DNA of 64,000 nucleotides from an uncultured bacterium (GTDB lineage: Bacteria > Patescibacteriota > Minisyncoccia > Phycocordibacterales > Phycocordibacteraceae). Position numbers and translations under genes: made by a program. Where the stretch lies: assembly GCA_947085505.1 (NCBI GenBank), contig CAMTWI010000003.1, positions 7,319 through 71,318 on the forward strand. The letters are read 5' to 3'. Below the pieces are notes generated by a model. It worked only from the letters and a program-made list of their open reading frames with translations. It had not been told where the DNA came from and did no database searches. Shown here in pieces: positions 13,807-58,515 of this stretch (the stretch's first letter is position 1; every line of letters starts with the position of its first letter).

Positions 13807-15228
13807 TTACTCCTCTCGCCAGTCTACAAATTGATAGTCGCTTGAGGTCTGTGGCGTGAATGGCGGAGGGTCAGTTGCGAGATTGCGATCGTACGCGTCG
13901 ATACGAGTTTGATACCCAGCCGAGTTCGTGCAACTTGTATTGAGGCACCATTTTGTGCCAGTACGGAGATTCGATACCGTTGTACCGAGAATGGTAAGCG
14001 TGCCGCGCGCATCATACGATGAGTTTCCATAGTAGTTGCGACCGAACGCACCTCCCTGTGCCACAAAAATACCGTTGAGTGTCATATTGTACGGAGAGTC
14101 GGGAGTGATAAGGATATTATTCTGTGCAATAACTGTGAGACCATCACTTCCGTCTGTCTGTGCATACGTTAGATTTCCTGGAAGCATTACGTTTGGTTTG
14201 ATACCAGTTGTTGTGACGTTCGCCGCCACAACCGTTACTTTTGTATCCACCACTCCCTCAATCCAGACGTTATCCTCAACAAAAATGAGTCCGCAATTTT
14301 CAGGGACGGTAATCGTCGAATAGAAGGTTTCGTTGCCAACAAGCTGGCGATCCGGTAGATCGTCGTCACTCGGATTAATGTGTGTCGAAGGAACTGATGA
14401 GGCAGTGGTAATACGCGTAACCGTCACCGTCCCACCTGCATTAAACCGAAGACGATACCCACGCCAGTAACTCGTAGCATTCGTGACGTTGGTCTCACTA
14501 AAGCGCGGCAAATAGTATCCATCGGCAAGAGCCTTCGTTTTAAGGCTCGCGAAATCAGCGGATATCGCACCGAAGTCTACCTGCGGCACTGGGTAATCCC
14601 AGAGATTTGTATTTGTTCCTGCACCCCACACCCCTGCCTTCGTCTGGTTTGGCGAGCACCCAAACGCTGAGGTACATAGCCAGGTCGAAAGCGAACTTGT
14701 TACCGGAGAGTTAATTGTGCCGTCCATGCGGATTCCCCCATTCGAATGGTAGGGGCCAAGGATCACACGATCTGAACCTGCCCACACACTGTCGTTGAGC
14801 ACATACGAGAATCGCGCGACCGTTGGACGCGCATATCGCGTCGTTATAGTGCGTGAGATTGTTGAATGTTCTACGGGCGTACCTGTAGAACTAATATCAA
14901 TAGAGGTGAGCGTGTCACATGAAGTGTTCCCCGTTATTGAAAGCTCGATGGTTCCAATCTCCCCACCCTCCGGGTCCATGTACGGAATAATATACGGACC
15001 CGGTTGTCCCGTACCGTTCGTGAGATCGTTCGGATAGTGTGCAAGAAACCACCGATAGTACTCGATACCCGCCTCAGCGATCGCAATCGCGCGAGCTGAA
15101 GCTGTCGCGTTTGTTTGAAACCGATTCTCTGAAAGCACGAAACCTGAAAGAGCGCCGAGCACAGTAACAAACACCGCACCAAAGACAATCGCCAGGAGCA
15201 TGAGGTATCCACGAGGGGGAGAGTGTTT
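13807..15228 (-). CDS. PilX-like type IV pilus minor pilin/assembly protein
   Basis: An N-terminal TM is followed by an A..AEAG PilX_N-like motif (SARAIAIAEAGIEYY). The rest is a large serine/threonine-rich ectodomain. It is the last gene of the minor-pilin operon. Confidence 0.5.
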   Translation of the reverse strand, partial: KHSPPRGYLMLLAIVFGAVFVTVLGALSGFVLSENRFQTNATASARAIAIAEAGIEYYRWFLAHYPNDLTNGTGQPGPYIIPYMDPEGGEIGTIELSITGNTSCDTLTSIDISSTGTPVEHSTISRTITTRYARPTVARFSYVLNDSVWAGSDRVILGPYHSNGGIRMDGTINSPVTSSLSTWLCTSAFGCSPNQTKAGVWGAGTNTNLWDYPVPQVDFGAISADFASLKTKALADGYYLPRFSETNVTNATSYWRGYRLRFNAGGTVTVTRITTASSVPSTHINPSDDDLPDRQLVGNETFYSTITVPENCGLIFVEDNVWIEGVVDTKVTVVAANVTTTGIKPNVMLPGNLTYAQTDGSDGLTVIAQNNILITPDSPYNMTLNGIFVAQGGAFGRNYYGNSSYDARGTLTILGTTVSNLRTGTKWCLNTSCTNSAGYQTRIDAYDRNLATDPPPFTPQTSSDYQFVDWREE

Positions 15229-15235
15229 CATAAAA

Positions 15236-15847
15236 TTATTCGCTACGAAGATTACGCAGCGTTGCACCACCTTCTATAGTGAGAATGTTTGGGGCGCGCT
15301 GCGGATTGATATCGACATCGAGTCGTGCACGAATAGTACGCACAGCGGCAATGTTAATGCTACCAGTAAGTTCAACGCCGTCGCTATCGAAATAGCGGAA
15401 CGCGGGTGTTGCCGCATCGTTCTTCACCCACGTCGCAATAATAGACGTCGATTCAGTCTGTCCCGTATAGGATGGCGGGTTTCCCCCAGCATTCGTTACT
15501 CCCTGGTACAGGACGCCACCTGAGAGGTATAACCGGATACGCTCTATCGAATGGTCTGCATCTCCATTTGCGTAGAACGTCACCGACGAAGTCGCTGCTG
15601 CCATAAGCGGGTACGACCCGTCTTCTCCATATGAGGCAGCTCGCAAAAGCGCTAGTGATTCATTGACTCCACGACTCGCACTATCCACCGCACTCGTAGC
15701 CTCAAGTAGGTACGCATTTGAGCGGTAGAAATACGAAATCATTGAGAGGAGACCGACACCGACCAGGCCCGTAAGTCCAATAACCACAACCATCTCCATA
15801 AGGGTAAATCCTCTAGAAGTGAGTGCGACGGAAGATGTGCGGTGCAT
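15236..15847 (-). CDS. type IV pilin-like protein with canonical prepilin leader
   Basis: Leader MHRTSSVALTSRG|FTLMEMVVVIGL follows the class III signal G-F-T-L-x-E plus a hydrophobic helix. Confidence 0.7.
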   Translation of the reverse strand: MHRTSSVALTSRGFTLMEMVVVIGLTGLVGVGLLSMISYFYRSNAYLLEATSAVDSASRGVNESLALLRAASYGEDGSYPLMAAATSSVTFYANGDADHSIERIRLYLSGGVLYQGVTNAGGNPPSYTGQTESTSIIATWVKNDAATPAFRYFDSDGVELTGSINIAAVRTIRARLDVDINPQRAPNILTIEGGATLRNLRSE

Positions 15848-15850
15848 AGA

Positions 15851-17329
15851 TTATTGAATGATATAAATGGCCTCGGTCGTCATCCCCGGCTCAAGAGTAT
15901 GTGGTGGTGTCGACGTTGGACTTACGAGGCTGTATCCCGGAATGGTAAGCGTATACACATCCCACTCAAGCGTGAGTGCTCGGTTCCCCGTCACGTCCGT
16001 AGTGCTTTCTATAATTGTCTTATAGAGAGGATCACCCGCTCCCGTCGTCCCCTTTCTCTTAGCACCAGTGAAAGTAAAAGGAACGTTTGGTAACGGTAAC
16101 GGCCCCTCTTCAAACGTAATCTGCCAACTCTCAACCGAAGGGGTGCTGAGTCCGTCCGCACTCGCAAGAGATGCGCGCAACGCAAGTCCCGGATAGGTTG
16201 AGGTAGAAACACCTGTCAGGTCTATGGGAAACGTAGTGAACCCGATACTGTTTCCAGGAATCACCGCGTCCGGAATGAGTCCGCCCGCGCTATCAGTAAC
16301 AGAGACCGTATAGCTGGTAGCAGCAGGAGTAGTTACTGAAGCCTGAATTGAAGTCCACTCGGCCAAGTACACAGGTGCAGTGGTTATCGACCGAGCGCTT
16401 CCAGAGAATGCGTAACTACCCGGAGCACCTGCGAGCATAAGCGCGCCAGCACTCACCTGCACTGACAGCATCTCCTCAAGATTAGAAGCGTCAGTAAACG
16501 TGTCGCTTGACACTGCCTGCCGGATTGGTTCAAACGTGCGGAGCGTAAACGAGGAGAGTACATCAATAGCGAACGTGCTCGTGGTCGTTTGGCCCAAGGA
16601 AACCGTGAGGTATCCTGGTGTCGGATTCTGATTCGTTACATCGCGTGCATACGTCTGCGCAGTCGAGTACCCATCTTTGGTAACAGTAATACGGTAGTCG
16701 GTTGATGTTGGTGCACCCGGGAGCGATACGCTGCCAGCGCTATCAGAAAACGTGATGAGGTCGATTGCAGGAGAGACGCTTGAATTTTCGATATGTACCG
16801 AAGCACCAGCAACCGCACCCCCGACCGCATTCACGACATTCACACGCAGGGTGCCTCCCCCTGCCGTTGTTTCAATCGAGGGTGGTACGACATTCGAGAC
16901 AATAACAATCTCTCGCTCCTCTCCACGGAACTGATACGTCGCTGCAATACGAACACGCTTGTAGTCTGTCGTAATACCGTTAGAATCTGCCGCTCCAAAC
17001 CCGTCCTTGGGATCATCCACATACTGAATGAGTGTGCGGACACCGTACGGAATACCGTTCATAGTTGTGGTCGCATACTGCTCGATAGGTCCCGCAGGAA
17101 TACCCCCAAGCGTACCAACATTGTCATAGGACAGGGAGCGAATATATTCCATCTGCGTTGTTGCCACCGCAGTGCCCCCGGCCTTTGCCTTCGAGGAAGA
17201 AGAGATGAGGAGTGATGCACGCAAGAGTCCGAGGAGTGCAAGAAACACAATAAGAATGAGTGCGATGCCAACAATGACATCTACCAAGGACATGCCGCGC
17301 GGTGCATTCATACACGTATGATAACGCAC
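15851..17329 (-). CDS. large type IV pilin-like minor pilin (PilV/FimU-like)
   Basis: APRG|MSLVDVIVGIALILIVF is prepilin-like, but carries D rather than E at +5. Large T/S-rich ectodomain. Confidence 0.5.
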   Translation of the reverse strand: MRYHTCMNAPRGMSLVDVIVGIALILIVFLALLGLLRASLLISSSSKAKAGGTAVATTQMEYIRSLSYDNVGTLGGIPAGPIEQYATTTMNGIPYGVRTLIQYVDDPKDGFGAADSNGITTDYKRVRIAATYQFRGEEREIVIVSNVVPPSIETTAGGGTLRVNVVNAVGGAVAGASVHIENSSVSPAIDLITFSDSAGSVSLPGAPTSTDYRITVTKDGYSTAQTYARDVTNQNPTPGYLTVSLGQTTTSTFAIDVLSSFTLRTFEPIRQAVSSDTFTDASNLEEMLSVQVSAGALMLAGAPGSYAFSGSARSITTAPVYLAEWTSIQASVTTPAATSYTVSVTDSAGGLIPDAVIPGNSIGFTTFPIDLTGVSTSTYPGLALRASLASADGLSTPSVESWQITFEEGPLPLPNVPFTFTGAKRKGTTGAGDPLYKTIIESTTDVTGNRALTLEWDVYTLTIPGYSLVSPTSTPPHTLEPGMTTEAIYIIQ

Positions 17330-17342
17330 CGATACATGCTCT

Positions 17343-17588
17343 CTAGCGGTTCTGGCGACCCGGCTTCAATAGTTTCGATAAGAGCGCAAAGAGTTCAATC
17401 CCCTCCTGCCTCGTAATCTGCATTTCAGAGTCCTCGTCCGGACCAGTCACAAACAACACGACACCGGGAATCCCTTGTACGGGCTCCTCGCTTACGCGTA
17501 CATATACATCGTTCCCTTTCTCGTTCCGGAAACGAGTTGATACCACCTTACCTATAGCCATATGCAGGCAGTGTAGCTCAGTTAACAA
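17343..17588 (-). CDS. hypothetical small cytoplasmic protein, first gene of the minor pilin operon
   Basis: ORF only. It ends 14 nt upstream of the pilV-like gene. A terminator lies upstream of it. Confidence 0.3.
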   Translation of the reverse strand: MLTELHCLHMAIGKVVSTRFRNEKGNDVYVRVSEEPVQGIPGVVLFVTGPDEDSEMQITRQEGIELFALLSKLLKPGRQNR

Positions 17589-17632
17589 TCTGGGACGATG
17601 TTAGAACTTTTTACATAAATATATAGACCACA

Positions 17633-17668
17633 AGAAAAGACCGGCTTGGTATAAGCCGGTCTTTTCTT
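17633..17668. terminator. bidirectional hairpin terminator
   Basis: AAAAGACCGGCTTGGTATAAGCCGGTCTTTTCTT. Confidence 0.6.
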
Positions 17669-17682
17669 ACGTAGGGTATGTA

Positions 17683-18321
17683 TTACGCCTCAGTCTTCAC
17701 AAATAGCTTTGTGAACCATCCAAACAAGCTGAAACTTTGCTCGTTTTCGGTAACAAAGCCATCAAGCTTAACTAGCTCATCCTTGAGTAAACTAATCTGA
17801 GCTTCAAGATCAGCGCGTACAGACGCATCGGTTGTCTTGCTGAGAGTGTTCTCAAGTCGCTGGATATCAGCGTTACTCTTTGCAATATTGCTTCGTACGG
17901 CTCCTGCGTTCTTCCAATCTGTGCCGAAGAGGAAATCTAGAATATTGCTTCGCTTTTCAACCTTTGTCATAGCCTCAACCGTTGTTGACGCTGAATCATT
18001 CTGTGAGTTCGCAACTGCACGTACCTCTGTGCCTATGGCACGATCACGGTCTGCAACAGAGAGTAGCGACTGAACGAAGGTAGCAACCATACTGCGATGT
18101 GACTCTGCAGTTATTTGTCCACGTGTAGTCGTCGAAGCGTTACCTCCCTTGTTGCCAGCATTCACCTGAGCCTCGCTGTTACCGCGAGTGGATGTCTCCT
18201 GAGAATTTGCTTGTGCGTTTACACTTACATCAACGTCAGCCTGAATGCCAGGTACCTGCGCATGTGCAGCTGTTGCTGAGAATAGAACGGCTAGTGTAAG
18301 AATGGGTATTAGTTTAATCAT
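17683..18321 (-). CDS. secreted alpha-helical protein (signal peptide, AHA|Q cleavage-like site)
   Basis: N-terminal signal peptide MIKLIPILTLAVLFSATAAHAQ, followed by a Ser/Thr/Asn-rich region and a C-terminal coiled-coil-like segment. Confidence 0.45.
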   Translation of the reverse strand: MIKLIPILTLAVLFSATAAHAQVPGIQADVDVSVNAQANSQETSTRGNSEAQVNAGNKGGNASTTTRGQITAESHRSMVATFVQSLLSVADRDRAIGTEVRAVANSQNDSASTTVEAMTKVEKRSNILDFLFGTDWKNAGAVRSNIAKSNADIQRLENTLSKTTDASVRADLEAQISLLKDELVKLDGFVTENEQSFSLFGWFTKLFVKTEA

Positions 18322-18428
18322 AGGTTAGATAATGAAGGTAATGCGTAATCATAGTGTACTACCTTACTCTCCATAGATGACGGCTGGACACCTAGAGTCT
18401 TACTCTAGGTGGGAGACTAGAGATAGAA

Positions 18429-19640
18429 CTAAATCTTATCCGAAAGCGAGTAGATAGGCGTAATCATCGCCATCGCGAACACACCCACTGCGCTTCCGAT
18501 GAAAAGCATAAGTACTGGCTCGATAATAGTGGAGAGGTCCTTGGTACGTTCTTCAACATCGTTCTCATAGTACTGCGCAACTTGCCCGAGCATGTCTGCC
18601 ACCTTTCCTGTCTCTTCGCCAACCGCAATCATGTCGCCGACGAATACTGGATAGAGTTTTGCGTGGTCCGTGAACGAGACTGAAAGTGTTTCACCTTTAC
18701 GAACACGCTCTTCTGCTTCCTTAATCACTTTTCCAAACGGGTTATCGCCAACCACCTCCGCAGCAATACTGAGTGTCGAGAGCATCTCAACGCCTGACGA
18801 CAAAAGCGAGGACATTGCCCGAGCGGCCCTAGCACTCATAGTCTCGCGAACGAGCTCGCCGATAACCGGAACACGGAGCGCAAGGAACAGCGTTATGCGG
18901 CCTCCAATCTTAGATTTTAAGAAGAATATAAAACCTGTAATGAAAACAACGAGCATGACGAACACGAGAATCGCATTCGACGCCATAAAGTCTGATGCGC
19001 CGATAATTATTTTCGTTGCGGTTGGCAGCTCAACGTTAAGCTCCTTAAACGTGTTAGAAAGCGTCGGTACGACGAAAATCATCATGAGGATACCGATAAT
19101 GATGATCGCGACGAGGATAATCGCAGGATAGATCATCGCGCCCTTCACCTTCTTTTGAAGGTTATTCGCCTTCTCCATCTGTCGTGCAACAACCGCAAGT
19201 GCATCAGCTAAGGTTCCTGACTCCTCACCTGCCTTACTCATCGCAATAAAGAGATCGGAGAATACCTTCCGATGCCTGGCGAGGGCCTCATGAAAAGACG
19301 AACCTTTCTTTACCTCCTCCTCGAGATCCATCACGATCTTCTTGAGTGCCTTGTTCTTTGTCTGTCGCTCAATAACGGAGAGTGCGCGGGTAAGTGTGAG
19401 ACCTGCAGCAATCATAGCCGCGAGATTCTTGGTGAATGTAATCTTCTCGTCAGTCTTCACACCGGTCCCAATCGTCATCTGCATCCACGCCGGCATAAGC
19501 GTACCGCTTCCCTCTTGTACAGACACAACGACACCCCCTTCTTTTTCTACTTGCTCATACACCGCGAATCTTGATGCGGCTTCGAGCACACGCTTCGTCT
19601 CTTCTCCTTCAGGACTCTTTGAGGTTACGCGAAATTTCAT
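18429..19640 (-). CDS. pilC: type IV pilus assembly platform protein PilC/GspF
   Basis: Two GspF repeats and three TM segments are present, with conserved motifs AMIYPAIILV and EPVLMLFIGSAVGV. Confidence 0.85.
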   Translation of the reverse strand: MKFRVTSKSPEGEETKRVLEAASRFAVYEQVEKEGGVVVSVQEGSGTLMPAWMQMTIGTGVKTDEKITFTKNLAAMIAAGLTLTRALSVIERQTKNKALKKIVMDLEEEVKKGSSFHEALARHRKVFSDLFIAMSKAGEESGTLADALAVVARQMEKANNLQKKVKGAMIYPAIILVAIIIIGILMMIFVVPTLSNTFKELNVELPTATKIIIGASDFMASNAILVFVMLVVFITGFIFFLKSKIGGRITLFLALRVPVIGELVRETMSARAARAMSSLLSSGVEMLSTLSIAAEVVGDNPFGKVIKEAEERVRKGETLSVSFTDHAKLYPVFVGDMIAVGEETGKVADMLGQVAQYYENDVEERTKDLSTIIEPVLMLFIGSAVGVFAMAMITPIYSLSDKI

Positions 19641-19740
19641 AAAAGAATCGTAGCATGCAAAATGAAACGGGCCGGACTCTCTAAAGGAGAATCCAGCCCG
19701 TGAACTATCGGTTCATGAACGCGAGCCGAGACGTGATGAC

Positions 19741-20088
19741 CTAGTGGCCGCGTCCCTTGGACGCGTGGACATCCGCCAGCGGGTCGGAATGCCGATGGCC
19801 AACGAACGTAATGGCGAGCATGCCGGCCAGGATTCCGAAACCGATGGCGAACGAAAATGCACTGCCAGACCAGCCGGTCGCCATAATACCGACAGCGACG
19901 GCGCCGATACCGATGACCCAGGCGAACCAGTCCGGCTTCCTGGCGATCAGGGCGGTAAAGAAGGCCAGAACTCCAGCCAACAGGTAGAAATGCAGGCTGC
20001 TGGGCATCAGGTTCAGGACCACGGCCCCACCGAAGACTGCGGCCAACGCAAGGCCAATGGCGACAAGAAATTTGGACATGCTATTCAC
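19741..20088 (-). CDS. small polytopic membrane protein of atypical (GC-rich) composition
   Basis: 115 aa with about 4 hydrophobic helices. Local GC is roughly 60% or more by hand count, against a background of about 50-55%. GCC/GCG-biased codons. It is inserted between pilC and pilB. Confidence 0.45.
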   Translation of the reverse strand: MNSMSKFLVAIGLALAAVFGGAVVLNLMPSSLHFYLLAGVLAFFTALIARKPDWFAWVIGIGAVAVGIMATGWSGSAFSFAIGFGILAGMLAITFVGHRHSDPLADVHASKGRGH

Positions 20089-20170
20089 TCCCAGGACGCG
20101 CGTACCTAGTTAATCCAGATACTCTTTCGCGTCTCCTCCCTGGTTATACGCCCGCTGTACTAAAATGCAA

Positions 20171-21925
20171 CTATTCTGAAACCGCTCTCAACACCTCCTC
20201 AACCGAGGTAATTCCACGCGTGGACTTGTAGAGGCCGTCTTCGAGCATTGTTAGCATGCCTTCTTTGCGCGCCTGAGCCTCAATAGCGTCTGGTGCTGCG
20301 TTGTGGAGAATGAGCTCACGAAGTGCAGATGAAAGCATCAAGACCTCATGAATACCGATACGACCTGAGTATCCATCCTCGCACTGTGGAGACGGGACCG
20401 GCCTATAGAATGGAACAGCATCCATTGTTGTTCCCTCCTTCACGAGCTTCTCTTCAATAAGCGCCTTGAGTACATTGTCGAACTTGTCCGCACTCGCGAC
20501 CTTCTCACGTTCGACCGCATCAAGCGCATACTGTTCTTTTCCGTCGCAGAGTCTACGCACAAGACGCTGACCCATAACCATGCGCAGCGTTGAAACCAAG
20601 AGGAATGGTTCCACGCCCATATCCATGAGACGCGGGATGGCACCGGCCGCAGAGTTCGTGTGAATGGTTGAGAGTACGAGGTGTCCGGTGAGTGCGGCGT
20701 TAATCGCTAGGGACGCCGTCTCAGCGTCACGAATCTCTCCCACCATGATGATGTTCGGGTCCTGACGAAGGAGTGCACGGAGTCCATTGGCGAACGTAAA
20801 GCCTATGGCTGGGTTCACCTGTGTCTGATTCACACGCTTCATCTGGTACTCGATCGGATCCTCAACAGTTGAGATATTAACGTCCGGCGTATTCAAAATA
20901 TCGAGGATGGTATAGAGCGTTGTGGTCTTTCCAGAGCCAGTTGGTCCGGAAATCAAAATGATGCCCGTTGTCTGTTTCATAGACTGGTGCACCCGCTCAA
21001 GCCCTGAGCCATGGAACCCGAGCACATCAAGCGTAAATCCTTCGCCGGTCTCCCTAAGGAGACGCATAACAATCTTTTCGCCAAAGTACGTCGGCAGAAG
21101 AGACACACGGAACGACACCTTGTCTGCTTCAGTCTCCATCTTGAAGCGGCCGTCCTGCGGCAAGCGCTTCTCGTCGAGCTTCAGGTTTGCAAGCACTTTA
21201 ATGCGGGCGGTAATGCCGGACGCTGCGGTGCGTGGAAGCGTCATCGCGTCATGCAACACGCCGTCAATGCGGTAGCGGACGAGCACTTCCTGTTCCATTG
21301 GCTCAATATGGATATCTGATGCCTTCTGGATAATTGCGTGGCGTAAGAGCGTATCAACGATGCGTACAATTGGTAGGTCCTCGGCCATCTTCTTCAGATC
21401 CTCGCCAGACGCATCATCTCCTAGCTGCCCGTCCTTTATAAGGTTGATGCGGCCGGCTTCGGTTGTGATGAGGTCGCCGAACTCTTCCTTAAGAGACTTC
21501 TGGTACTGCAGGAGCACGTTCTTGAGTGACTCGTCGTCGGTGAGGCGTGGAAGAATCTTGAGACCTGTTGTCTTACGCACCGAGTCGATAGCCGGAAGGT
21601 CCTCAGTATCAAGCATCGCTACTTCGAGCGAGCTCCCATCCTTCTTGAACGCAACGATGGAGTGCGTGCGTGCGATTGGTTCTGGGATTAACGAGAGGAC
21701 GTTCAAGTCGATCTTCTTGTCCTTCAGATTAACGAAGGGAATTCCAAGGACGTATGCTTTTATGCGGCGAAGACTGTCGGTTGAGAGAAGTCCCTGTGCA
21801 ATCAAGATGTCGCCGATAGACTGCTTCTTTCGCTTCGCTTCCTCATCTGCAGCCTCAACATCCTTCCGGGACACGAGTCCGGAGTCGAGAATGAATTCCT
21901 TAAGTTCGCTTTCAGAGACCTGCAT
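20171..21925 (-). CDS. pilB: type IV pilus assembly ATPase PilB/GspE
   Basis: Walker A GPTGSGKTTT, Asp box, His box, Walker B GEIRD, and N-terminal GSPII domain. Length 584 aa. Confidence 0.9.
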   Translation of the reverse strand: MQVSESELKEFILDSGLVSRKDVEAADEEAKRKKQSIGDILIAQGLLSTDSLRRIKAYVLGIPFVNLKDKKIDLNVLSLIPEPIARTHSIVAFKKDGSSLEVAMLDTEDLPAIDSVRKTTGLKILPRLTDDESLKNVLLQYQKSLKEEFGDLITTEAGRINLIKDGQLGDDASGEDLKKMAEDLPIVRIVDTLLRHAIIQKASDIHIEPMEQEVLVRYRIDGVLHDAMTLPRTAASGITARIKVLANLKLDEKRLPQDGRFKMETEADKVSFRVSLLPTYFGEKIVMRLLRETGEGFTLDVLGFHGSGLERVHQSMKQTTGIILISGPTGSGKTTTLYTILDILNTPDVNISTVEDPIEYQMKRVNQTQVNPAIGFTFANGLRALLRQDPNIIMVGEIRDAETASLAINAALTGHLVLSTIHTNSAAGAIPRLMDMGVEPFLLVSTLRMVMGQRLVRRLCDGKEQYALDAVEREKVASADKFDNVLKALIEEKLVKEGTTMDAVPFYRPVPSPQCEDGYSGRIGIHEVLMLSSALRELILHNAAPDAIEAQARKEGMLTMLEDGLYKSTRGITSVEEVLRAVSE

Positions 21926-29580: not shown

Positions 29581-29654
29581 TGGTGCGGGATAGGAGAATC
29601 GGACTCCTGCTCTCAGTTTGGAAAACTGATGTTCTACCATTAAACTAATCCCGC
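29581..29654 (-). tRNA. tRNA-Gly (anticodon UCC), CCA encoded
   Basis: Hand-folded cloverleaf. Acceptor GCGGGAT/ATCCCGC. Anticodon stem TCAGT/ACTGA with loop TTTCCAA. The T-loop TCCGATT is slightly atypical. Confidence 0.6.
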
Positions 29655-29701
29655 TTCGGCTCGAGAATACCATATTCTCTTGCCCTCTGTCTTCATCCTA
29701 G

Positions 29702-29772
29702 TCGGGGTGCGGAGAATCGAACTCCGTCAACTACTTCCCAAAAGTAGCGTACTACCGGTATACGACACCCCG
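29702..29772 (-). tRNA. tRNA-Pro (anticodon UGG), no encoded CCA
   Basis: Acceptor CGGGGTG/CACCCCG. Anticodon stem CTACT/AGTAG with loop TTTGGGA. T-arm CGGAG-TTCGATT-CTCCG. Confidence 0.7.
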
Positions 29773-30087
29773 AGCGACTAACGGGATGCGCGTTGGCACA
29801 TCCCTACAGGAATACCTTCTCACGAATCTCCTGTCTTCGCTATCCTAACAGATTAATATGATTTACGGCAGAGAGCCTTATGCGCTCTCGGAGGGTTCAT
29901 GGCGTCTCTTATTTCTGTGGATATGTGTCGAATATCTTCATGTCTCTCAGCACAGAGGTCCTTAAGAGAGACTTATACAAAACCTAATAAGAATAAGGGT
30001 ATTTTTAGGACCGTGAAGATTTCTTCACATTTGTCCTATGTCCTTTATCCCCAGTGTTAACACCTTTATCCCCTGTTGTCCCAAACA

Positions 30088-30116
30088 CAAAAGACAGCCG
30101 ATTGAGCTGTCTTTTG
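30088..30116 (-). terminator. hairpin terminator downstream of tRNA-Gly(GCC)
   Basis: AAAAGACAGC-CGATTGA-GCTGTCTTTT. Confidence 0.5.
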
Positions 30117-30127
30117 CTTTCTCATGC

Positions 30128-30201
30128 TTGGTGCGGATAGGGAGAATCGAACTCCCGACTCGTCCTTGGCAAGGACGCGTTTTACCACTAAACCATATCC
30201 G
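30128..30201 (-). tRNA. tRNA-Gly (anticodon GCC), CCA encoded
   Basis: Acceptor GCGGATA/TATCCGC. Anticodon stem CGTCC/GGACG with loop TTGCCAA. T-arm GGGAG-TTCGATT-CTCCC. Confidence 0.75.
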
Positions 30202-30247
30202 CTACGAGGGGCATCATAGCACACGGAGTGCCGCACGTTCCAGTATT

Positions 30248-31429
30248 TTAGCAGGCGTACTCGGACGGAACGAACGAGATGTCCTTCAATCTTCCGGCAC
30301 TCGAGACCAGAATCTCGCGTGGCAGTGCGTGCATGTTGAAGTTGCTTGCCATAGAGAATCCATATGCTCCAGCGTTCCGTATGGCGAGTACGTCACCTAG
30401 TTCAGGACGTACCATCAGGCGATCGACAGCGAAGATGTCTCCTGACTCGCACACGTTCCCTGCGACTGTTATAGAAGCTTTGTGTCCTCGAGTCCGAGAA
30501 AGGTTCTCTATAGGATGATATGAACCGTACATGGCATGTCGTATCAACTGGTTGAACCCGGAGTTAGCACCAACGAACTGATGCTCGCTTGTATTCTTTT
30601 GATCAACTACAGACACGAGCAAGGAGCCGCTCTCTGCCACAATGAATCGGCCGGGTTCCATCGCAAACGAGACATCGTGTCCGATAGATTTCCTGAAAGC
30701 GCTGGTAAGAATTTTGAACTCCTTCCCTACCCTCTTTAAATCAAGCTGGGTTTCTCCTGGCGCGTACGGTATACCGAGTCCTCCGCCAAAATCGATGTGT
30801 ATAAGATTCGGAAACTTCTTTGCTGTTTGCAGGAGCACTCGCACCGACCTAAGGAAGACACCAGCATCAAGGATGTTTGATCCTATGTGCTGCTGTATAC
30901 CGGTTACCTTAAGGCCGTATGAGTCTGCAATCCGCAGCGCTTCTGGAATGTCTTCAAGTGTTATGCCGAATTTGCTGTGCGGTCCTCCAGTTATCACGTG
31001 CGCGTGGTGCCCTGCCCCAATGCCCTGATTAAGACGTAGAGACACTTCCCTGCCTAAGGCTCGCCTTCCCCACACTTCGAGCTGCGTAAGAGAATCGAGA
31101 TGTGTGCGGGCGCCAGCTGCTGCTGCTGTCGCTAACTCTGCTTCCGTAAGACTCGCACACGTGAAGCTAGTTTCCTTTGCCTTGAATCCAACGTGCTTCG
31201 CAAGTGCGAGTTCCCCAAGACTAACTGCCTCTACCCCTATTCCCTGCTTGCGAATAATCCCAAGAATCGCAGGATTACTATTCGCCTTCATTGCGTAGTG
31301 CAGTGCGACATTCGGGAAGTGTCGCTTAAGTTTTTGGCACTGCGCTTCTATCACCTGCTGCTCGTAGACGTAAACCGGCGTCCCGTATGTCAGTGCTGCC
31401 TTATTCAGTATCTCTCTTCCCTCTTTCAT
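30248..31429 (-). CDS. lysA: PLP-dependent fold-type III decarboxylase, diaminopimelate decarboxylase-like
   Basis: HYAMKAN PLP-lysine motif, CESGD, and C-terminal NAGAYG..M.S.FN are all present. Substrate specificity (DAP, ornithine/arginine or carboxynorspermidine) cannot be decided by eye. Confidence 0.65.
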   Translation of the reverse strand: MKEGREILNKAALTYGTPVYVYEQQVIEAQCQKLKRHFPNVALHYAMKANSNPAILGIIRKQGIGVEAVSLGELALAKHVGFKAKETSFTCASLTEAELATAAAAGARTHLDSLTQLEVWGRRALGREVSLRLNQGIGAGHHAHVITGGPHSKFGITLEDIPEALRIADSYGLKVTGIQQHIGSNILDAGVFLRSVRVLLQTAKKFPNLIHIDFGGGLGIPYAPGETQLDLKRVGKEFKILTSAFRKSIGHDVSFAMEPGRFIVAESGSLLVSVVDQKNTSEHQFVGANSGFNQLIRHAMYGSYHPIENLSRTRGHKASITVAGNVCESGDIFAVDRLMVRPELGDVLAIRNAGAYGFSMASNFNMHALPREILVSSAGRLKDISFVPSEYAC

Positions 31430-31433
31430 AATG

Positions 31434-31505
31434 TGCTCCCGCCAGGACTCGAACCTGGAACGACTGATCCGAAGTCAGTAATGATATCCATTTCACCACA
31501 GGAGC
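31434..31505 (-). tRNA. tRNA-Arg (anticodon UCG), no encoded CCA
   Basis: Acceptor GCTCCTG/CGGGAGC with one G-U pair. Anticodon stem ACTGA/TCAGT with loop CTTCGGA. T-arm CCAGG-TTCGAGT-CCTGG. Confidence 0.7.
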
Positions 31506-31565: not shown

Positions 31566-33029
31566 ATGAAGTTCCCTGTTCCACTTGAGGTGTCCGGCGT
31601 CACTAAAGCCCTTCAGGACGCTGGATACGAAGCATATCTCGTGGGTGGATGCGTCCGTGATCTCCTTCTTAACCGGACCCCTAAGGACTGGGACGTAACC
31701 ACCAACGCAAAGCCTGAGCAGATCCAGGCAGTGTTCCCTGATTCGTTTTACGAGAATGATTTTGGAACCGTAGGCGTGAAGACCGGAAGCGAAGACAGTA
31801 CCCTCGCAATCATTGAGGTTACTCCCTATCGCACCGAAACTGGATACTCTGATAAGCGGCGTCCGGACGCCGTATCGTTTGGGGATAACTTAGAAGAAGA
31901 TCTCGCACGCCGAGACTTCACTATTAACGCTATTGCCCTTGATCCATCTAAAGGACAATTAATAGACCCCTATCAAGGACAAAAGGACATTGAGTCTCAG
32001 GTCTTAAGGACAGTTGGCGTACCTACTGACCGATTTGAGGAGGATGCCCTACGTCTTATGCGCGCAGTTCGACTAGTAGCGGAGCTCGAGTTCGCGCTCG
32101 ATACCGACACCGCTGCTGCTATCAAGGAGAAGGGTCCGAATTTGGCACACATTTCACGTGAAAGAATCCGGGACGAGTTTTTACGTATCCTAAACTCCAG
32201 CCAGCCTATGATGGCGCTTGTACTGGCTCAGCAGCTTGAAATACTTAGCTATATCGCCCCTGATCTGACCCGAGGAGTAGGTGTAGATCAGAACCAGGCA
32301 CATAGCTACGACGTGTTTGGGCACCTTATGCGAGCACTCCAGCACGCAGCTGATAAGGGCTGGAGCCAGGACATACGCCTTGCAGCGGTATTCCATGACG
32401 TATCTAAGCCAGAAACTCGACGCTGGTCCGATGAGAAAAAGGATTGGACCTTTCATGGGCACGAGGTAGTTGGTTCACGTGTAACCCGAAAGGCTCTAGA
32501 GGACCTCAAGTTTTCACGTGAAACTATTGAAAGAGTCACTAAATTGGTGCGCTGGCACATGTTCTTCTCCGATCCAGACCAGATTACCCTTTCGGCTGTT
32601 CGCCGAATGATTAGGAATGTTGGGGAGGAAAATATCTACGATCTTCTTGATCTCCGCATCTGTGATCGCATTGGGACAGGCAGACCTAAAGAGCAGCCGT
32701 TCCGTTTCCGCAGGTATAAAGCCATGGTTGAGGAAGCGCTTCGAGATCCGATATCTGTAGGAATGCTTAAAACAGACGGTTCACGGCTAATGGAGAAGTT
32801 CCACGTGCAACCAGGTCCAAAAATTGGTTTTGTCCTCCATGCGCTCCTTGAGGAGGTCCTCGAAGATCCAAAGAGGAATACTGAGGAGTACTTGGACACC
32901 CGGACTCTCGAGCTCCTGGCGCTACCTGAGGCGGACCTTAAGACGCTAGGCGATTCAGGCAAAAAGAGGAGGGAAGACGAGGAGGAACGAGAAATCAAGG
33001 AAATCCTTGAAAAACACCACGTAGGGTAG
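31566..33029 (+). CDS. cca: CCA-adding tRNA nucleotidyltransferase with C-terminal HD domain
   Basis: N-terminal GGCVRD(LLL) Pol-beta nucleotidyltransferase motif, plus the C-terminal HD domain motif VFHDVSKP. Length 487 aa. Confidence 0.85.
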   Translation: MKFPVPLEVSGVTKALQDAGYEAYLVGGCVRDLLLNRTPKDWDVTTNAKPEQIQAVFPDSFYENDFGTVGVKTGSEDSTLAIIEVTPYRTETGYSDKRRPDAVSFGDNLEEDLARRDFTINAIALDPSKGQLIDPYQGQKDIESQVLRTVGVPTDRFEEDALRLMRAVRLVAELEFALDTDTAAAIKEKGPNLAHISRERIRDEFLRILNSSQPMMALVLAQQLEILSYIAPDLTRGVGVDQNQAHSYDVFGHLMRALQHAADKGWSQDIRLAAVFHDVSKPETRRWSDEKKDWTFHGHEVVGSRVTRKALEDLKFSRETIERVTKLVRWHMFFSDPDQITLSAVRRMIRNVGEENIYDLLDLRICDRIGTGRPKEQPFRFRRYKAMVEEALRDPISVGMLKTDGSRLMEKFHVQPGPKIGFVLHALLEEVLEDPKRNTEEYLDTRTLELLALPEADLKTLGDSGKKRREDEEEREIKEILEKHHVG

Positions 33030-33031
33030 GT

Positions 33032-33047
33032 TTTCACGTGGAACTAG
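33032..33047. repeat. 16-nt motif TTTCACGTGGAACTAG, copy 1
   Basis: An exact duplicate lies at 33248-33263. The related 12-mer palindrome TTTCACGTGAAA occurs at 32152-32163 and 32512-32523 inside cca. TTTCATGTGAAA occurs at 33091-33102. Confidence 0.6.
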
Positions 33048-33060
33048 CTGTTTTAGGCAC

Positions 33061-33085
33061 AAAAGCCCGTACATACGGGCTTTTG
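33061..33085 (+). terminator. rho-independent terminator after cca
   Basis: AAAAGCCCGTACATACGGGCTTTTG. Confidence 0.7.
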
Positions 33086-33247
33086 TGGTGTTTCATGTGA
33101 AATATGGCCATATAGCAGAAGACCGCCGGGAAGGCGGTCTCTTCTGTAATGCGTCCAAGGCGGCGGGGAAGGTTGGGGAAGGGGCTGTTTTTGAGACCCC
33201 GCCAAGAGAGTATGGACATAACAGGACAAACGAACTGATGATGTGCC

Positions 33248-33263
33248 TTTCACGTGGAACTAG
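33248..33263. repeat. 16-nt motif TTTCACGTGGAACTAG, copy 2
   Basis: Exact repeat of 33032-33047, 216 bp downstream. Confidence 0.6.
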
Positions 33264-33509
33264 TTTATGCCGGACCCAGTCGGTATAGAGAGGATACGCC
33301 TCGTCGTTGGACAGCTAACATGCCACACGTTACTTGCACCTGATAGGGCACAAAGAGCTCGCAAAGAACATCGCCACCCTTAGGAGGTGGCGTGTCTCTC
33401 TCGAGCTCTGCCCAACCCCCTCAGGTCTGTATAGATAATACTCTTCTAAAGGACAGAGTAAAGGACAACTATGTGGATAGAGTGGATAACATGTCTTTTA
33501 TGATGTCCT

Positions 33510-34304
33510 TTAGAGCGTAATGGACACAGGGCAGTGGTCGGATCCGTAGATGTCCGCATGAATCTCTGCGTCTTTAACTTTAGAAGAAAGCTTCTTCGAA
33601 GTGAAAATGTAGTCAATACGCCAGCCCACATTGCGGTCGCGCGCCATCCGAAACGGACTCCACCAGGAGTAGTGGCCGTTGCCCTCTGTGAACATTCGGA
33701 ACGTATCAACGAATCCGGCTTCCTGGATTTGATCGATGCCCGCTCGCTCTTCCTTGGTATACCCGTGCCCGCCCTCGTTTGCTTTAGGGTTTGCGAGATC
33801 GTCTGGGGTATGTGCGACGTTCAAATCACCGCAGAAAATAACGGGTTTCTCCTCTTCAAGACGCTTCATATAGGTAAGGAAAGCAGGGTCCCATTTATCG
33901 TGGCGAAGACCAAGTCTGGAGAGGTCTTCCTTGGAGTTTGGGGTATAGACTGAGACAACCCAGAACTGACCCATGTCTGCAGCAATGATCCGACCCTCCT
34001 CGTTAGGGTCTCCGTAATCGTCGCCGGAAAGGCCGTATTCCTTGGCTATATCCTCAGGCATACCAAAGAGCACGTCCTCGGGAACCTGCTTAGTGAATAT
34101 GGCGGTGCCACTGTAGCCCTTTCGATTCTTCGCGGAATGCCAGTATTCCTCGTACTCCATGAGATCAACAGGGGATTGATGCTGCTCTGCTTTTGTCTCT
34201 TGAAGACAAATGATGTCTGGCTTCAATTGTTTTACAAAAGGCTCAAATAGGCCCTTTTTGTGTACGGCACGGATACCGTTTACGTTCCAGGAGACGATTT
34301 TCAT
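33510..34304 (-). CDS. xth: exodeoxyribonuclease III (AP endonuclease)
   Basis: N-terminus MKIVSWNVNGIRA, then ICLQETK. Conserved C-terminal SDHCPV. Confidence 0.9.
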   Translation of the reverse strand: MKIVSWNVNGIRAVHKKGLFEPFVKQLKPDIICLQETKAEQHQSPVDLMEYEEYWHSAKNRKGYSGTAIFTKQVPEDVLFGMPEDIAKEYGLSGDDYGDPNEEGRIIAADMGQFWVVSVYTPNSKEDLSRLGLRHDKWDPAFLTYMKRLEEEKPVIFCGDLNVAHTPDDLANPKANEGGHGYTKEERAGIDQIQEAGFVDTFRMFTEGNGHYSWWSPFRMARDRNVGWRIDYIFTSKKLSSKVKDAEIHADIYGSDHCPVSITL

Positions 34305-36273: not shown

Positions 36274-37953
36274 GTGTCGCGGTCTTTTCTATACACGCAC
36301 ACACCTCTTCATGCTGCGCGGCCCGGGTATAATCAAAAGAACACCATGCCACCACTCAACGATCCAAAGAAGGAGCCCGCGGCAACTCCCACTCCTGCTG
36401 AAACTGCAGCTAACATCACCGTTGCGCTCGAGGACCGTTCAAAATATATACGCACCATGGCCAAAGACATGGCAACGATTTCTGGAAATCCGTCCGTGCA
36501 GGCTCCAGCAAAGAAAACATCCATAAAAGAAGAGACCGTTGCTGGCGTCACCCTCGCAACTGAAGAGCGTCCATTCTTTGAGAAGCCGCAATCAAGAGAA
36601 GAGCGTGTGGCAGGTGAACCAATTGCACTCCCGACCATGCAGGAGGCGGACACCGTTGTAGAGGCCGCGCCGAATCCAGTTGAAGTGCGTGCTGCAGAGC
36701 GTGCGGCTGTCCTCGAGCGCCTTCGCCAGAAGGTGGGGGAGAGTGCACAGATGTCTATCCAAGATTCTCCTGCACCCGAAGTGCCAGGTCCTGTTGAGGC
36801 ACCAAGAGAGAAGTCGTGGCCAGATATTCCCGCACCTGATTTTTCAGTACCCCCGCCAGCGCCACTTCCTATTCCCGAGACTCCGAAGTCTGAGTGGTCT
36901 AACATCCCGGCACCTGCGCCACAGTTTGCACCGCTTACAGAACCCGTGCCTTCAAGACTTCCTCCGGTAGGGAAGGAGTCGTATCGTGAACCTATTGAAG
37001 AAGCGGTGCCAGCGCGTCCACTTGCACCTAGTGGCCCTGACGTTATGCATACGTACTCGAGCGATTTCTCAGATCGTATCGACACGAAGGACGCTTCCAC
37101 GTTCTCGGTACTTGCCGCAGAGCAGGACTCAGAGACTAAAACCGCCGCGGTGCTCTCTTCACCAAAGAAGAGTCCCGCTAAAGCAATTGTTGCGGTAGCG
37201 ACTGGGATCCTGCTTCTCGCACTCGCGGGCGGCGGCGTCTTCGCTACCTATCAGTTTGTTATGACCATGCGCGACACGCCGATCGCATCGCTTACCGTTC
37301 CATCGATTGTCTTTGCAGACGAATACCGTGAACTCTCTGGCACCGGGAACGCGCTTATGAGTGCGTTTGCGTCTACGGCAAACGGCACGCTTGTTCCCGG
37401 CAACGTTCTTGTCACATATATCCTTACGGACGCAAGCGGGGAAGACGGAACAATTCTTAGAAGTCCGGCTGGTGGCGCTGCGTTTATTCGAGCACTCCAG
37501 GTTCCTGCGCCTGACATACTTCTTCGAAACATCGCAGGAATGAGCACGACCGGGGTAATAAATGCAGGAGGGAATACGACGCCATTCTTCGCGCTCCGAG
37601 TCGATTCGTATGAGCGAACCTACGCTGGCATCCTCACGTGGGAGCCACTCATGCATCGGGACCTCGGACTTTTGTACCCACTCTATAGGATAGAGAGTGC
37701 TCCGACCGAAGAGACTGTGGCGACAAGTACCACAGGCGCAACAACAACGACAGCGATTCCTGTACTTGCAGCCGAAGCAGCCGCCCGTACTCGATTTGAA
37801 GACGCAATTGTTGCCAACCATGATGTGCGCATCCTGAGAGATACCGAAGGGCGTTCCCTAATCCTCTACGGCTACGCAAACAAGCGAACACTCTTAGTTG
37901 TCCGAGACGAAGCTGCTTTTGAAGCACTCCTTGCTCGCCTGAAGACTGAATAG
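36274..37953 (+). CDS. proline-rich membrane protein (N-terminal P/A/E-rich region, single TM near residue 300, C-terminal ectodomain)
   Basis: Low-complexity PAP/PEP repeats. TM helix AIVAVATGILLLALAGGGVFA. No known motif. The start is uncertain. Confidence 0.35.
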   Translation: MSRSFLYTHTPLHAARPGYNQKNTMPPLNDPKKEPAATPTPAETAANITVALEDRSKYIRTMAKDMATISGNPSVQAPAKKTSIKEETVAGVTLATEERPFFEKPQSREERVAGEPIALPTMQEADTVVEAAPNPVEVRAAERAAVLERLRQKVGESAQMSIQDSPAPEVPGPVEAPREKSWPDIPAPDFSVPPPAPLPIPETPKSEWSNIPAPAPQFAPLTEPVPSRLPPVGKESYREPIEEAVPARPLAPSGPDVMHTYSSDFSDRIDTKDASTFSVLAAEQDSETKTAAVLSSPKKSPAKAIVAVATGILLLALAGGGVFATYQFVMTMRDTPIASLTVPSIVFADEYRELSGTGNALMSAFASTANGTLVPGNVLVTYILTDASGEDGTILRSPAGGAAFIRALQVPAPDILLRNIAGMSTTGVINAGGNTTPFFALRVDSYERTYAGILTWEPLMHRDLGLLYPLYRIESAPTEETVATSTTGATTTTAIPVLAAEAAARTRFEDAIVANHDVRILRDTEGRSLILYGYANKRTLLVVRDEAAFEALLARLKTE

Positions 37954-55610: not shown

Positions 55611-55641
55611 CAAAAGGGCCCGTATATACGGGCCCTTTTGC
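55611..55641. terminator. bidirectional hairpin terminator between T4SS-like operon and yidC
   Basis: AAAAGGGCCCGTATATACGGGCCCTTTTG. Confidence 0.7.
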
Positions 55642-56378
55642 TATTTAACTGCGACGAGCTCTATCTTCTTTCGGCGGATAATAAATTCCTGAAGAACACC
55701 TACCAGGTTGCTCGTTATAAAGTAGAGAGCGATGGCAACCGAGGTGTAGTACGCAGCAACACCTATGAACACCGGGAGCATAAATCGCATCTGGAGCGCG
55801 AGCGAGCGTCCAAAGTCTGCCTGCATGTCCGTTCCTGGTTTCTTTGTACTCTTCTCAGGAACAGGTATTGCATACCAACCGTATGCGAACTGAGTGACTG
55901 CAGCGATAAGTGCAAGAATAATGCTCGCTCCCGTAACCGCAAAAACCCCCAAGAAGAGTGGCGCGATAGCGAGTGGAGCCGGAACGAATGAATAAAGAAT
56001 AGAAGCATCAACCGTAAGGAGGGTCTTGTTGTTGAACACCCAGTAGAGCGCAATAACAATCGGGAGCTGGATGATGAGTGTGAGAAGCCCTGCGAATGGA
56101 TTCACCCCATACTTCTTGTAAAGTGCGAACATTTCTTTCGCCTGGTTCTCTTTATCATCCTTGAGCTTCTCACGAATCTCTTTCATCTCTGGCTCAATGG
56201 CCTTGATTGCTCGCTGGGTGCGGAGTGCCGCGAACGAGAGCGGCATAAGGATGACTTTAACGATCAAGGTTGCCACAACCACCGCCAAACCAATATCCTG
56301 CCCAGGCAGGATATCTGTAAGGAACATGAGGAGGTTATAAATCGGCGCGTAGAGAACAGTATGGAAGAAGGACATCAT
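55641..56378 (-). CDS. yidC: membrane protein insertase YidC (short, Gram-positive/CPR-type)
   Basis: Five TM helices, with conserved YidC/Oxa1 core motifs. It sits in rpmH-rnpA-yidC synteny. Confidence 0.85.
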   Translation of the reverse strand: MMSFFHTVLYAPIYNLLMFLTDILPGQDIGLAVVVATLIVKVILMPLSFAALRTQRAIKAIEPEMKEIREKLKDDKENQAKEMFALYKKYGVNPFAGLLTLIIQLPIVIALYWVFNNKTLLTVDASILYSFVPAPLAIAPLFLGVFAVTGASIILALIAAVTQFAYGWYAIPVPEKSTKKPGTDMQADFGRSLALQMRFMLPVFIGVAAYYTSVAIALYFITSNLVGVLQEFIIRRKKIELVAVK

Positions 56379-56389
56379 GGAAGTTCAGT

Positions 56390-56716
56390 CTACCGCACTT
56401 CAGGGAAGGCGCGAGCGAGTAGATCTTCCAGCTCTTCCTTGAGAACAGGGAAGGGAAGGGTCTGGCTTCCTGGGCGAGCATAGATAATGAGCGCGCGAGT
56501 GGGAAGACACCAGGGTTTGAGCACCGAAAGGACCCGACGCTTCAGGAGATGCCGTCCAACGGACAATTTTGAGACCTTTTTAGAGACAACAACTGCACAA
56601 CCGCCTTCGATCTGATTTTCCCGTATGGATAGGGAAAAATGGCTTGAAACAAGCCTTTTTTCAGGTCCAGTAGGCGCAAAGTGCGCCCGAGTGAGGCGCA
56701 ATTTACGTGGAATCAT
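56390..56716 (-). CDS. rnpA: ribonuclease P protein component
   Basis: Small basic protein directly downstream of rpmH. Its ATG overlaps the rpmH stop by 1 nt. Confidence 0.75.
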   Translation of the reverse strand: MIPRKLRLTRAHFAPTGPEKRLVSSHFSLSIRENQIEGGCAVVVSKKVSKLSVGRHLLKRRVLSVLKPWCLPTRALIIYARPGSQTLPFPVLKEELEDLLARAFPEVR

Positions 56717-56942: not shown

Positions 56943-56951
56943 TTATCCACA
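56943..56951 (+). promoter_or_regulatory. consensus DnaA box TTATCCACA, 2 nt upstream of dnaA ATG
   Basis: Exact 9-mer match. Confidence 0.6.
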
Positions 56952-58303: not shown

Positions 58304-58515
58304 TTGGGGAAAACCTATGGATAACCTTCGAAGAAACACGGGGACATGTAGGGGAAAGAAGGGTTTCCGAGAGGACAACAATTTGTTATCCCCAGAACAT
58401 CTCGTCCAGACGAGGCCGCCCTCAACAGGTTGTTTCCGAGTGAAGCGTCTTAATAGAGCCAGTCTATTGAACGGAAGGGGTTGTCCCCCGTGTCCACACC
58501 CCTAATAATAGGACT
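58304..58515. other. candidate oriC / DnaA-box cluster in dnaA-dnaN spacer
   Basis: One-mismatch DnaA boxes: TTATCCATA on the minus strand at about 58313-58321 and TTATCCCCA at about 58385-58393. A 2-mismatch box lies at about 58489-58497. An AT-rich stretch runs into the dnaN start. Confidence 0.45.

Follow-up and report, generated by a model that had tools for sequence, protein, structure and literature searches.

A compact array of predicted parS sites in and behind the cca gene of a Paceibacterota genome, with a candidate structured RNA in the same spacer

Why should a palindromic motif recur several times within, and directly behind, the gene of a tRNA nucleotidyltransferase? The question is raised by a 64-kb stretch of DNA from an uncultured bacterium of the Paceibacterota (Parcubacteria, Candidate Phyla Radiation or CPR), here termed the window, which is the part of this genome that our scans cover. 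In this window, copies of the motif TTTCACGTG(A/G)AA are gathered in the cca gene, coding for the CCA-adding enzyme, and in the spacer between cca and the convergent xth gene. The motif corresponds to the core of parS, the site bound by the partition protein ParB, and the combination of canonical parS sequence, confinement to one locus, conservation of site positions and synonymous codons, and proximity to the origin leads us to conclude that the cluster is very probably the chromosomal centromere of this genome, in the form of a seven-site array of predicted ParB-binding parS sites.

A preliminary description of this DNA had listed five copies of the motif and judged their clustering to be far beyond chance, and both points were borne out. 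The sequence TTTCACGTGAAA is present at 32152 and 32512, inside cca, where both copies encode S-R-E in frame (codons 197-199 and 317-319); TTTCACGTGGAA(CTAG) lies at 33032 and 33248 in the cca/xth spacer, and a degenerate copy, TTTCATGTGAAA, at 33091. The pattern TTTCACGTGRAA has no matches in the window other than those at 32152, 32512, 33032 and 33248, and the six strand-matches of the 12-mer pattern at these four loci compare with 0.03 expected from dinucleotide-preserving shuffles, none of 100 reaching the observed number. Repeat finding and a scan of 16-mers also recovered TTCACGTGTAAC at 32474 and AGTTCCACGTGCAAC at 32797, neither of them listed in that description, which brings the total to seven.

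The parS consensus has been given as TGTTNCACGTGAAACA for B. subtilis and C. glutamicum, with a variant, AGTTTCACGTGAAACT, in S. pneumoniae (PMC7022226). When every 16-mer of the window was scored against the consensus, leaving position 5 free and allowing up to three mismatches, seven sites were recovered, all of them within 32150-33261 (1.1 kb). The sole other 16-mer within this threshold, at 36606, has no CACGTG core, and no further site with that core was found at three mismatches or fewer in the rest of the window. All seven sites stand two or three mismatches from TGTTNCACGTGAAACA, mostly at positions 1, 2, 15 and 16; four of them occupy the 3' two-thirds of cca and three the cca/xth spacer, as follows.

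31566..33029, plus strand: cca, CCA-adding tRNA nucleotidyltransferase with HD domain (PF01743, PF12627, PF01966, PF13735), host of sites 1-4
32150..32165: parS-like site 1, CATTTCACGTGAAAGA, inside cca at nt 585 (codons H-I-S-R-E-R); at the same offset in most relatives, with codons TCA, CGT and GAA frozen across them
32471..32486: parS-like site 2, TGGTTCACGTGTAACC, inside cca at nt 906; mostly TGTTACACGTGAACCA in relatives, one mismatch from parS, with codons TCA, CGT and GTA frozen
32510..32525: parS-like site 3, GTTTTCACGTGAAACT, inside cca at nt 945 (F-S-R-E-T)
32797..32812: parS-like site 4, AGTTCCACGTGCAACC, inside cca at nt 1232 (K-F-H-V-Q-P)
33030..33045: parS-like site 5, GTTTTCACGTGGAACT, starting 1 nt past the cca stop; nearly all relatives have a post-stop site
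33089..33104: parS-like site 6, TGTTTCATGTGAAATA, with a degenerate CATGTG core and two mismatches to parS; the core at this position is CACGTG in several relatives
33246..33261: parS-like site 7, CCTTTCACGTGGAACT, inside the structured element described below; conserved more than any other site, reading TTCACGTGGAAC in almost all relatives
33510..34304, minus strand: xth, exonuclease III family, convergent neighbour of cca

The same arrangement is found throughout the relatives of this organism. A scan of one genome per species returned 569 stretches encoding a relative of the CCA enzyme, of which the best 80 were fetched; these have 72-100% protein identity and come from metagenome-assembled genomes (MAGs) whose labels read Paceibacterota, Parcubacteria, Kaiserbacteria or Patescibacteria. 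Nearly all of them (72-95% CCA identity) present parS-like 16-mers at the same cca offsets (nt 585, 906, 945 and 1232), usually with one to four further sites directly after the stop codon of cca, for a median of five sites per genome (range 2-10), and many of these sites are within one mismatch of the consensus (e.g. TGTTTCACGTGAAAGA, TGTTACACGTGAACCA and TGTTCCACGTGGAACA). At least one spacer site is kept in 73 of 75 relatives, and the convergent cca/xth pair with its long spacer (300-650 bp in most) in 75 of the 81 fetched loci. In the six closest relatives aligned (L003, L004, L005, L008, L009 and L010; 83-95% CCA identity), the three spacer sites are kept together with the intervening sequence, including the region of the 216-bp unit whose presence in orthologous spacers the preliminary description had singled out for comparison. 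The 10-kb flanks on either side of the relatives' clusters are almost free of such sites: with up to three mismatches, there are 3.45 of them per kb in the cluster, as against 0.029 per kb over 1.22 Mb of flanking DNA. A uniform frequency of the motif, which had been put forward as the mark of a compositional artefact, is not seen in the 64-kb window or in these flanks.

In order to avoid circularity in comparing the sites with parS, we collected every exact CACGTG in 79 relatives and examined the flanks alone. The 351 sites inside the cluster show T (.39), G (.60), T (.84), T (.95) and T/C (.64/.22) before CAC, that is, the canonical half-site tGTT(T/C)CAC. The same flank pattern is seen in the 130 CACGTG sites that lie in non-coding spacers, whereas the flanks of the 237 sites outside the cluster are random.

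Inside cca, the codon alignment of 79 genes reveals what maintains these sequences. Serine is encoded by TCA in 85-98% of cases within the sites and in 19% elsewhere in cca, and arginine by CGT in 69-97% and 23%, respectively; valine 414 is GTG in 100% of the sequences, as against 26% elsewhere in the gene. Third positions in the flanks behave likewise, with GTT in 100% of the sequences that have valine at codon 196 (26% elsewhere) and TTT at codon 316 in 87%. Binomial p-values for such codon shares overstate significance because the sequences are related, a problem from which the contrast within the gene is free: the site cores have a normalised synonymous codon entropy of 0.36, as against 0.87 for the remaining 410 degenerate columns (Mann-Whitney p = 2e-9). 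In the in-gene sites, it is the DNA and not the protein that is under selection, and the retention of spacer sites in the relatives points to the same selection on the sequence itself.

The position of the array with respect to the origin of replication can be judged from four genes of the window, which were recognised by eye and confirmed by the Pfam labels of an identical public contig.

55641-56378, minus strand: yidC
56390-56716, minus strand: rnpA
56954-58303, plus strand: dnaA
58516-59616, plus strand: dnaN

The parS cluster lies 24 kb from dnaA/dnaN, and a perfect DnaA box stands next to dnaA, at 56943. The cumulative GC skew has a broad, weak and flat minimum at about 22-40 kb, within which the parS cluster falls and dnaA does not. 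The array is hence origin-proximal. Two imperfect DnaA boxes were also noted in the dnaA-dnaN spacer, at 58316 and 58386. The cca/xth spacer was considered as a location for oriC and found to be unsupported, since it holds one or two imperfect DnaA boxes as against the perfect box at dnaA.

The protein that would bind the array was searched for in all open reading frames (ORFs) of the window and of the 80 loci with motif regular expressions (GERRxRA and KGGxGKT) and with phmmer, using as query a B. subtilis Spo0J sequence 100% identical to its database entry; a database search with this query, not aimed at CPR, returned Bacillus proteins only. COG1475, which carries the old name "predicted transcriptional regulators", is the ParB/Spo0J family. 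In the gene table of Nelson & Stegen 2015 (PMC4508563), COG1475 is present in 13 of 17 Parcubacteria genomes, among them C7867-004, and SMC (COG1196) in 14 of the 17. The genome C7867-004 is the source of locus L010, one of the six aligned above, which carries seven parS-like sites. According to the same table, the COG1475 gene of the C7867 genomes and of RAAC4 has a locus tag two to six genes from dprA, near dnaX and clpB, and that of C7867-004 is about 400 locus-tag steps from dnaA (PMC4508563); parB appears not to be linked to the origin in this lineage, unlike in most bacteria. Movement driven by ParA is doubtful, because ParA (COG1192) is absent from the core-gene table, and a ParA-independent role in SMC loading, as in pneumococcus, offers a reasonable model by analogy. 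No description of parS or ParABS in Patescibacteria or CPR was met in the full-text literature searched, the coverage of which is incomplete, so that absence is unproven.

Several observations weigh against a chromosomal parS array. Neither a ParB nor a ParA gene was found in the window or, in the 80 relatives, at up to 10 kb from cca, and ParA/Soj COG1192 has no entry in the Parcubacteria core-gene table (PMC4508563), which leaves ParB in this organism as likely on the evidence of a published table for a relative. The genomes C7867-007 and C7867-008 carry the sites and yet have no COG1475 entry in that table (PMC4508563), which may reflect incomplete genomes. At their outer positions, the window's own sites depart from the consensus, and the core of site 6 is CATGTG. 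Site 7 is inside the structured element, to which its conservation could be partly owed. Finally, the GC-skew signal is weak and oriC was not located.

Palindromic and clustered sites would also suit an ordinary transcription factor other than ParB, binding TTCACGTGAA as an operator set for cca, xth or the RNA of the spacer. The preliminary description had listed a transcription-factor operator set with an E-box-like core among its candidates, and the part of that proposal that stands is that these look like DNA sites bound by a protein; the E-box-like operator does not, given the match to parS and the location of most copies in coding sequence or behind a stop codon. An operator set is congruent with the placement of site 7 inside, and site 6 just downstream of, a probable RNA gene, and a regulatory side-effect is possible in that chromosomal ParB is able to repress promoters in its vicinity (PMC7022226). 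Four of the seven sites, however, are deep in a coding region at conserved offsets, and none is upstream of the start of cca or xth, three of them lying downstream of both genes. Moreover, the flanks beyond the 12-mer reproduce the parS half-site, and the neighbouring genes (xth, an xerC/D-like gene, rpsO and a NYN-domain gene) include no adjacent regulator; we consider an operator set unlikely. Binding by a ParB-fold protein of non-canonical type, or by another protein, with a role outside partition, such as a nucleoid-occlusion-like or replication-control factor, would accommodate the lack of ParB in the window, the lack of ParA in the Parcubacteria core table and the DnaA-box-like sequences conserved in the same spacer. 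This alternative is decidedly unlikely, in view of a half-site equal to that of parS, of the ParB-family COG and SMC of related genomes, and of the CCCGGG core of Noc sites as opposed to the CACGTG seen here. Noc-binding sites have that CCCGGG core and are scattered over the chromosome away from the terminus. As such, a Noc-binding site of the ATTTCCCGGGAAAT type was rejected as a candidate, with a CACGTG or CATGTG core in all seven sites and a single cluster.

Two further explanations would deprive part of the array of its meaning. In three of the four in-gene sites, the S-R encoded belongs to conserved motifs of the CCA enzyme, and it could be argued that the in-gene copies are by-products of conserved S-R-E and S-R-V peptides combined with codon bias, with only the spacer copies being meaningful. 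The codons used in the sites, however, are minority codons in the rest of cca (TCA, CGT and GTG) and near-fixed in the sites, and third positions in the flanks (GTT at codon 196 and TTT at codon 316) are fixed as well, which makes such an origin very improbable. The 16-mers at 33032 and 33248, on the other hand, form an exact direct repeat that brackets 216 bp with two hairpins, and they had been suggested to bound a small insertion resembling a miniature inverted-repeat transposable element (MITE), of which they would be target-site duplications or terminal repeats. This suggestion has become hardly credible: the three-site layout is kept in the six closest relatives and at least one spacer site in nearly every relative, neither blastn nor the covariance model described below detected a further copy of any spacer segment, whether in the window or in 1.3 Mb of DNA from relatives, and the motif recurs four more times inside cca.

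If the cluster is indeed a parS array, its most likely mode of action may be sketched from reviews of established ParABS biology. Dimers of ParB, a CTPase, would recognise each 16-bp palindrome, close into CTP-dependent sliding clamps and spread a few kb into the adjacent DNA, building a single partition complex. This complex would load SMC condensin onto the origin region and, if ParA is present, would be moved along a ParA gradient, whereby sister origins would be resolved and segregated. With seven sites in 1.1 kb, a compact locus might then sustain loading at a very high local rate.

The spacer itself deserves separate attention. Its extent (33030-33509, 480 bp between convergent genes) is as first described, and it is unusually long because, besides parS-like sites, it also holds two apparent bidirectional terminators and a structured element of about 280 nt. 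The features of the spacer are listed here.

33058..33087: T1, bidirectional intrinsic terminator hairpin (CACAAAAGCCCGTA/TACGGGCTTTTGTG), kept in relatives
33116..33146: T2, second G+C-rich hairpin, between an A-run and a T-run; relatives have a hairpin of varying sequence at the same place
33150..33428, minus strand (probable): structured non-coding element, candidate non-coding RNA (ncRNA) of about 280 nt, with conserved sequence islands and helices
33162-33168 with 33197-33203: helix H1, its loop conserved and, on the minus strand, C-rich
33268-33277 with 33307-33315: helix Hc
33290-33293 with 33299-33302: helix H2, with a conserved ATACG loop
33355-33408: long nested hairpin within the structured element
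33435..33462, minus strand: promoter-like site of the element (-35 TTTACT, 16-nt spacer, -10 TATTAT)
33445..33514: inverted repeat TAAAGGACA / TGTCCTTTA, unchanged across relatives and placed immediately upstream of the promoter-like site

The stems of T1 present compensatory changes in relatives (e.g. AAAACGGCCT...AGGCCGTTTT), and this hairpin is probably the terminator of cca. From its sequence, T2 looks like a bidirectional terminator too, and it is the probable 3' end of a minus-strand RNA. A small structured RNA gene had been among the candidates of the preliminary description, and it gains support here as a feature in its own right, distinct from the parS sites of the same spacer. The nested hairpin noted in that description is real (GAGCTCG at 33355-33361 with CGAGCTC at 33402-33408, and CGCCACC at 33372-33378 with GGTGGCG at 33386-33392). 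The helices of the element differ in sequence among relatives and keep their complementarity, with three helices showing compensatory changes across 68 distinct sequences. In a MAFFT alignment of 23 sequences, a structure of 25 pairs has 78% of its cells paired, as against 32-49% when the partners are slid, and 75 cells with double changes, as against 31 ± 5 in shuffles (0/500 as high). A covariance model built from this alignment finds exactly one strong match per genome, always in the cca/xth spacer (67 of 78 sources), and its only other match above threshold is a weak one inside the cca gene of L019 (E = 0.002). In the alignment of the 68 distinct sequences to the model, 82.5% of the cells pair (32-44% when slid) and all 25 pairs show double changes, in 325 cells as compared to 100 ± 8 in shuffles, figures that lean towards the structure to which this alignment was fitted. 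RNAalifold, run on MAFFT alignments of all relatives, recovered H2 alone because of alignment noise. Support is poor for a helix that would pair ACGTG with the CACGT of site 7, in which A-C cells are numerous, and the closing helix 5'-ACCUG/CAGGU-3' obtained from a single-sequence fold was discarded, as it is not kept in relatives.

The element does not resemble any catalogued RNA among those searched for. No ORF of at least 40 amino acids spans 33289-33391. The proposed run of Rfam over the spacer matched no family: at gathering thresholds, tRNAs alone were found in the window and nothing in the spacers of six relatives, and at E values up to 10 over 32900-33650 there were chance hairpin or terminator matches (mir-6644, Thr_leader) far below the gathering thresholds. 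ARAGORN reported no tmRNA. Signatures of RNase P, SRP, tmRNA and 6S were compared by eye with the conserved blocks and rejected for want of a convincing match, in agreement with the negative Rfam result. The C-rich loop of H1 on the minus strand may loosely recall the regulatory small RNAs (sRNAs) with C-rich loops of the RsaE/RoxS kind.

Regarding its orientation, the element is probably a minus-strand ncRNA or a structured 3' untranslated region of xth. The minus strand is favoured because of the GU and AC counts of H1, the one helix to favour it (49 and 17, respectively), the promoter-like site and the layout of the terminators, both of which are on the cca side of the element, as would be expected of transcription that proceeds from the xth side to the cca side. 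The hexamers of the promoter-like site lie in conserved blocks, where GTAAAGGACA does not vary and the -10 retains the form TAnnAT, and the site may be read from these sequences as a sigma-70-like promoter of the minus-strand element. Over all helices, three counts of GU versus AC (47 vs 44, 26 vs 28 and 108 vs 99) are equivocal, and the GNRA-like apical loops that relatives have on the plus strand of the 33355-33408 hairpin point away from the minus strand. The inverted repeat encloses one or two imperfect DnaA-box-like 9-mers (33472-33480 and 33481-33489), CTATCCACA and TTATCCACT on the minus strand, and it could be a DnaA-responsive or other operator. On the basis of sequence comparison, we propose the structured element as a candidate new ncRNA family of the Paceibacterota.

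It is tempting to join both features of the locus into one. The Paceibacterota as a whole might possess a compact, plasmid-like point centromere, a dense parS array set in the essential cca gene and in an adjacent, hitherto undescribed ncRNA gene that holds the best-conserved parS, with the RNA forming part of a partition and SMC-loading module in a lineage possibly devoid of ParA. The RNA gene, or its transcription, would then take part in that module, possibly under the control of DnaA through the conserved pair of DnaA boxes upstream. We regard this wider proposal as doubtful.

Some other features of the window and of the relatives' loci were noted. Four minus-strand tRNA genes (Gly-TCC, Pro-TGG, Gly-GCC and Arg-TCG; 29581-31505) lie just upstream of cca, and the six relatives scanned have opposite-strand tRNA genes upstream of cca as well. 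An ORF of 559 amino acids without Pfam match (36274-37953), 3 kb from the parS cluster, sits between the NYN-domain gene and a gene for a DksA/TraR-type zinc finger. The minus-strand ORF run at 13807-21925 resembles by eye a type IV pilus cluster, with pilin-like N-termini (e.g. FTLMEMVVVIGL) and proteins of the size of PilB and PilC. In locus L030, of a Parcubacteria MAG, the enterobacterial sRNA STnc70 was matched at 17445-17589 with 42 bits (gathering score, 40 bits), a match that is probably spurious. Two loci from MAGs of other labels, L024 ('Bacillota bacterium', JBLNCF010000007.1) and L061 ('Methylobacter sp.', DATBQC010000501.1), have a Paceibacterota-type cca with the same in-gene parS sites; xth is its neighbour in L024, and the contig of L061 stops at the cca stop codon. 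Both are probably mis-binned CPR contigs, and the presence of parS in cca could serve as a marker of bin contamination.

The interest of the array lies in the fact that parS marks the point at which the segregation machinery takes hold of a chromosome and condensin is loaded, and that it is a marker of the origin region independent of others. The organisms of the CPR are uncultivated, have tiny genomes and go through cell cycles that are poorly understood. A lineage-wide parS array would provide a sequence landmark with which CPR assemblies and bins may be oriented and checked, as well as a defined DNA substrate for in vitro tests of ParB and SMC from this group. The in-gene sites offer a clean natural example of a DNA-binding code laid over a protein code, and the structured element may add a new RNA family to a group for which few non-coding RNAs are known.

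With regard to known systems, the array shares with the parS sites of B. subtilis, Caulobacter, Corynebacterium and other bacteria the same 16-bp palindrome, the origin-proximal location in several copies, some of them intragenic, and the rarity elsewhere. The sites of these model species are spread over 5 to several hundred kb, and the array reported here, with seven sites in 1.1 kb, is much denser. It also differs from them in having four sites in a single housekeeping gene at positions fixed throughout the lineage, in the apparent location of parB, next to neither the sites nor dnaA, and in the degeneracy of the window copies at their outermost bases. In this last respect it is closer to S. 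pneumoniae, which has a ParB-parS-SMC system without ParA and whose outer-base variant A/G-GTT...AAC-T is that of most window sites. Pneumococcus also provides a plausible functional model, in which ParB acts mainly as an SMC loader, congruent with the presence of SMC and COG1475, and not of ParA, in the Parcubacteria table; its parS sites, however, are four and dispersed near the origin, whereas the array described here is intragenic. The Noc-binding sites (NBS) of the Firmicutes have a related palindrome bound by a ParB paralogue, as opposed to the CACGTG core and single locus of the present case. Closely spaced sites forming one compact centromere, as seen here, are found in the centromere arrays of plasmids, such as sopC of F and other iterated ParB-binding repeats, but these are plasmid-specific tandem repeats of non-coding DNA, and here canonical parS sites are interleaved with coding sequence and an RNA-like element. 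The parS site as such is textbook biology and of a known kind; what is new in the array is the lineage, the density of the sites and their fixed placement inside cca, together with the undescribed structured element of the spacer.

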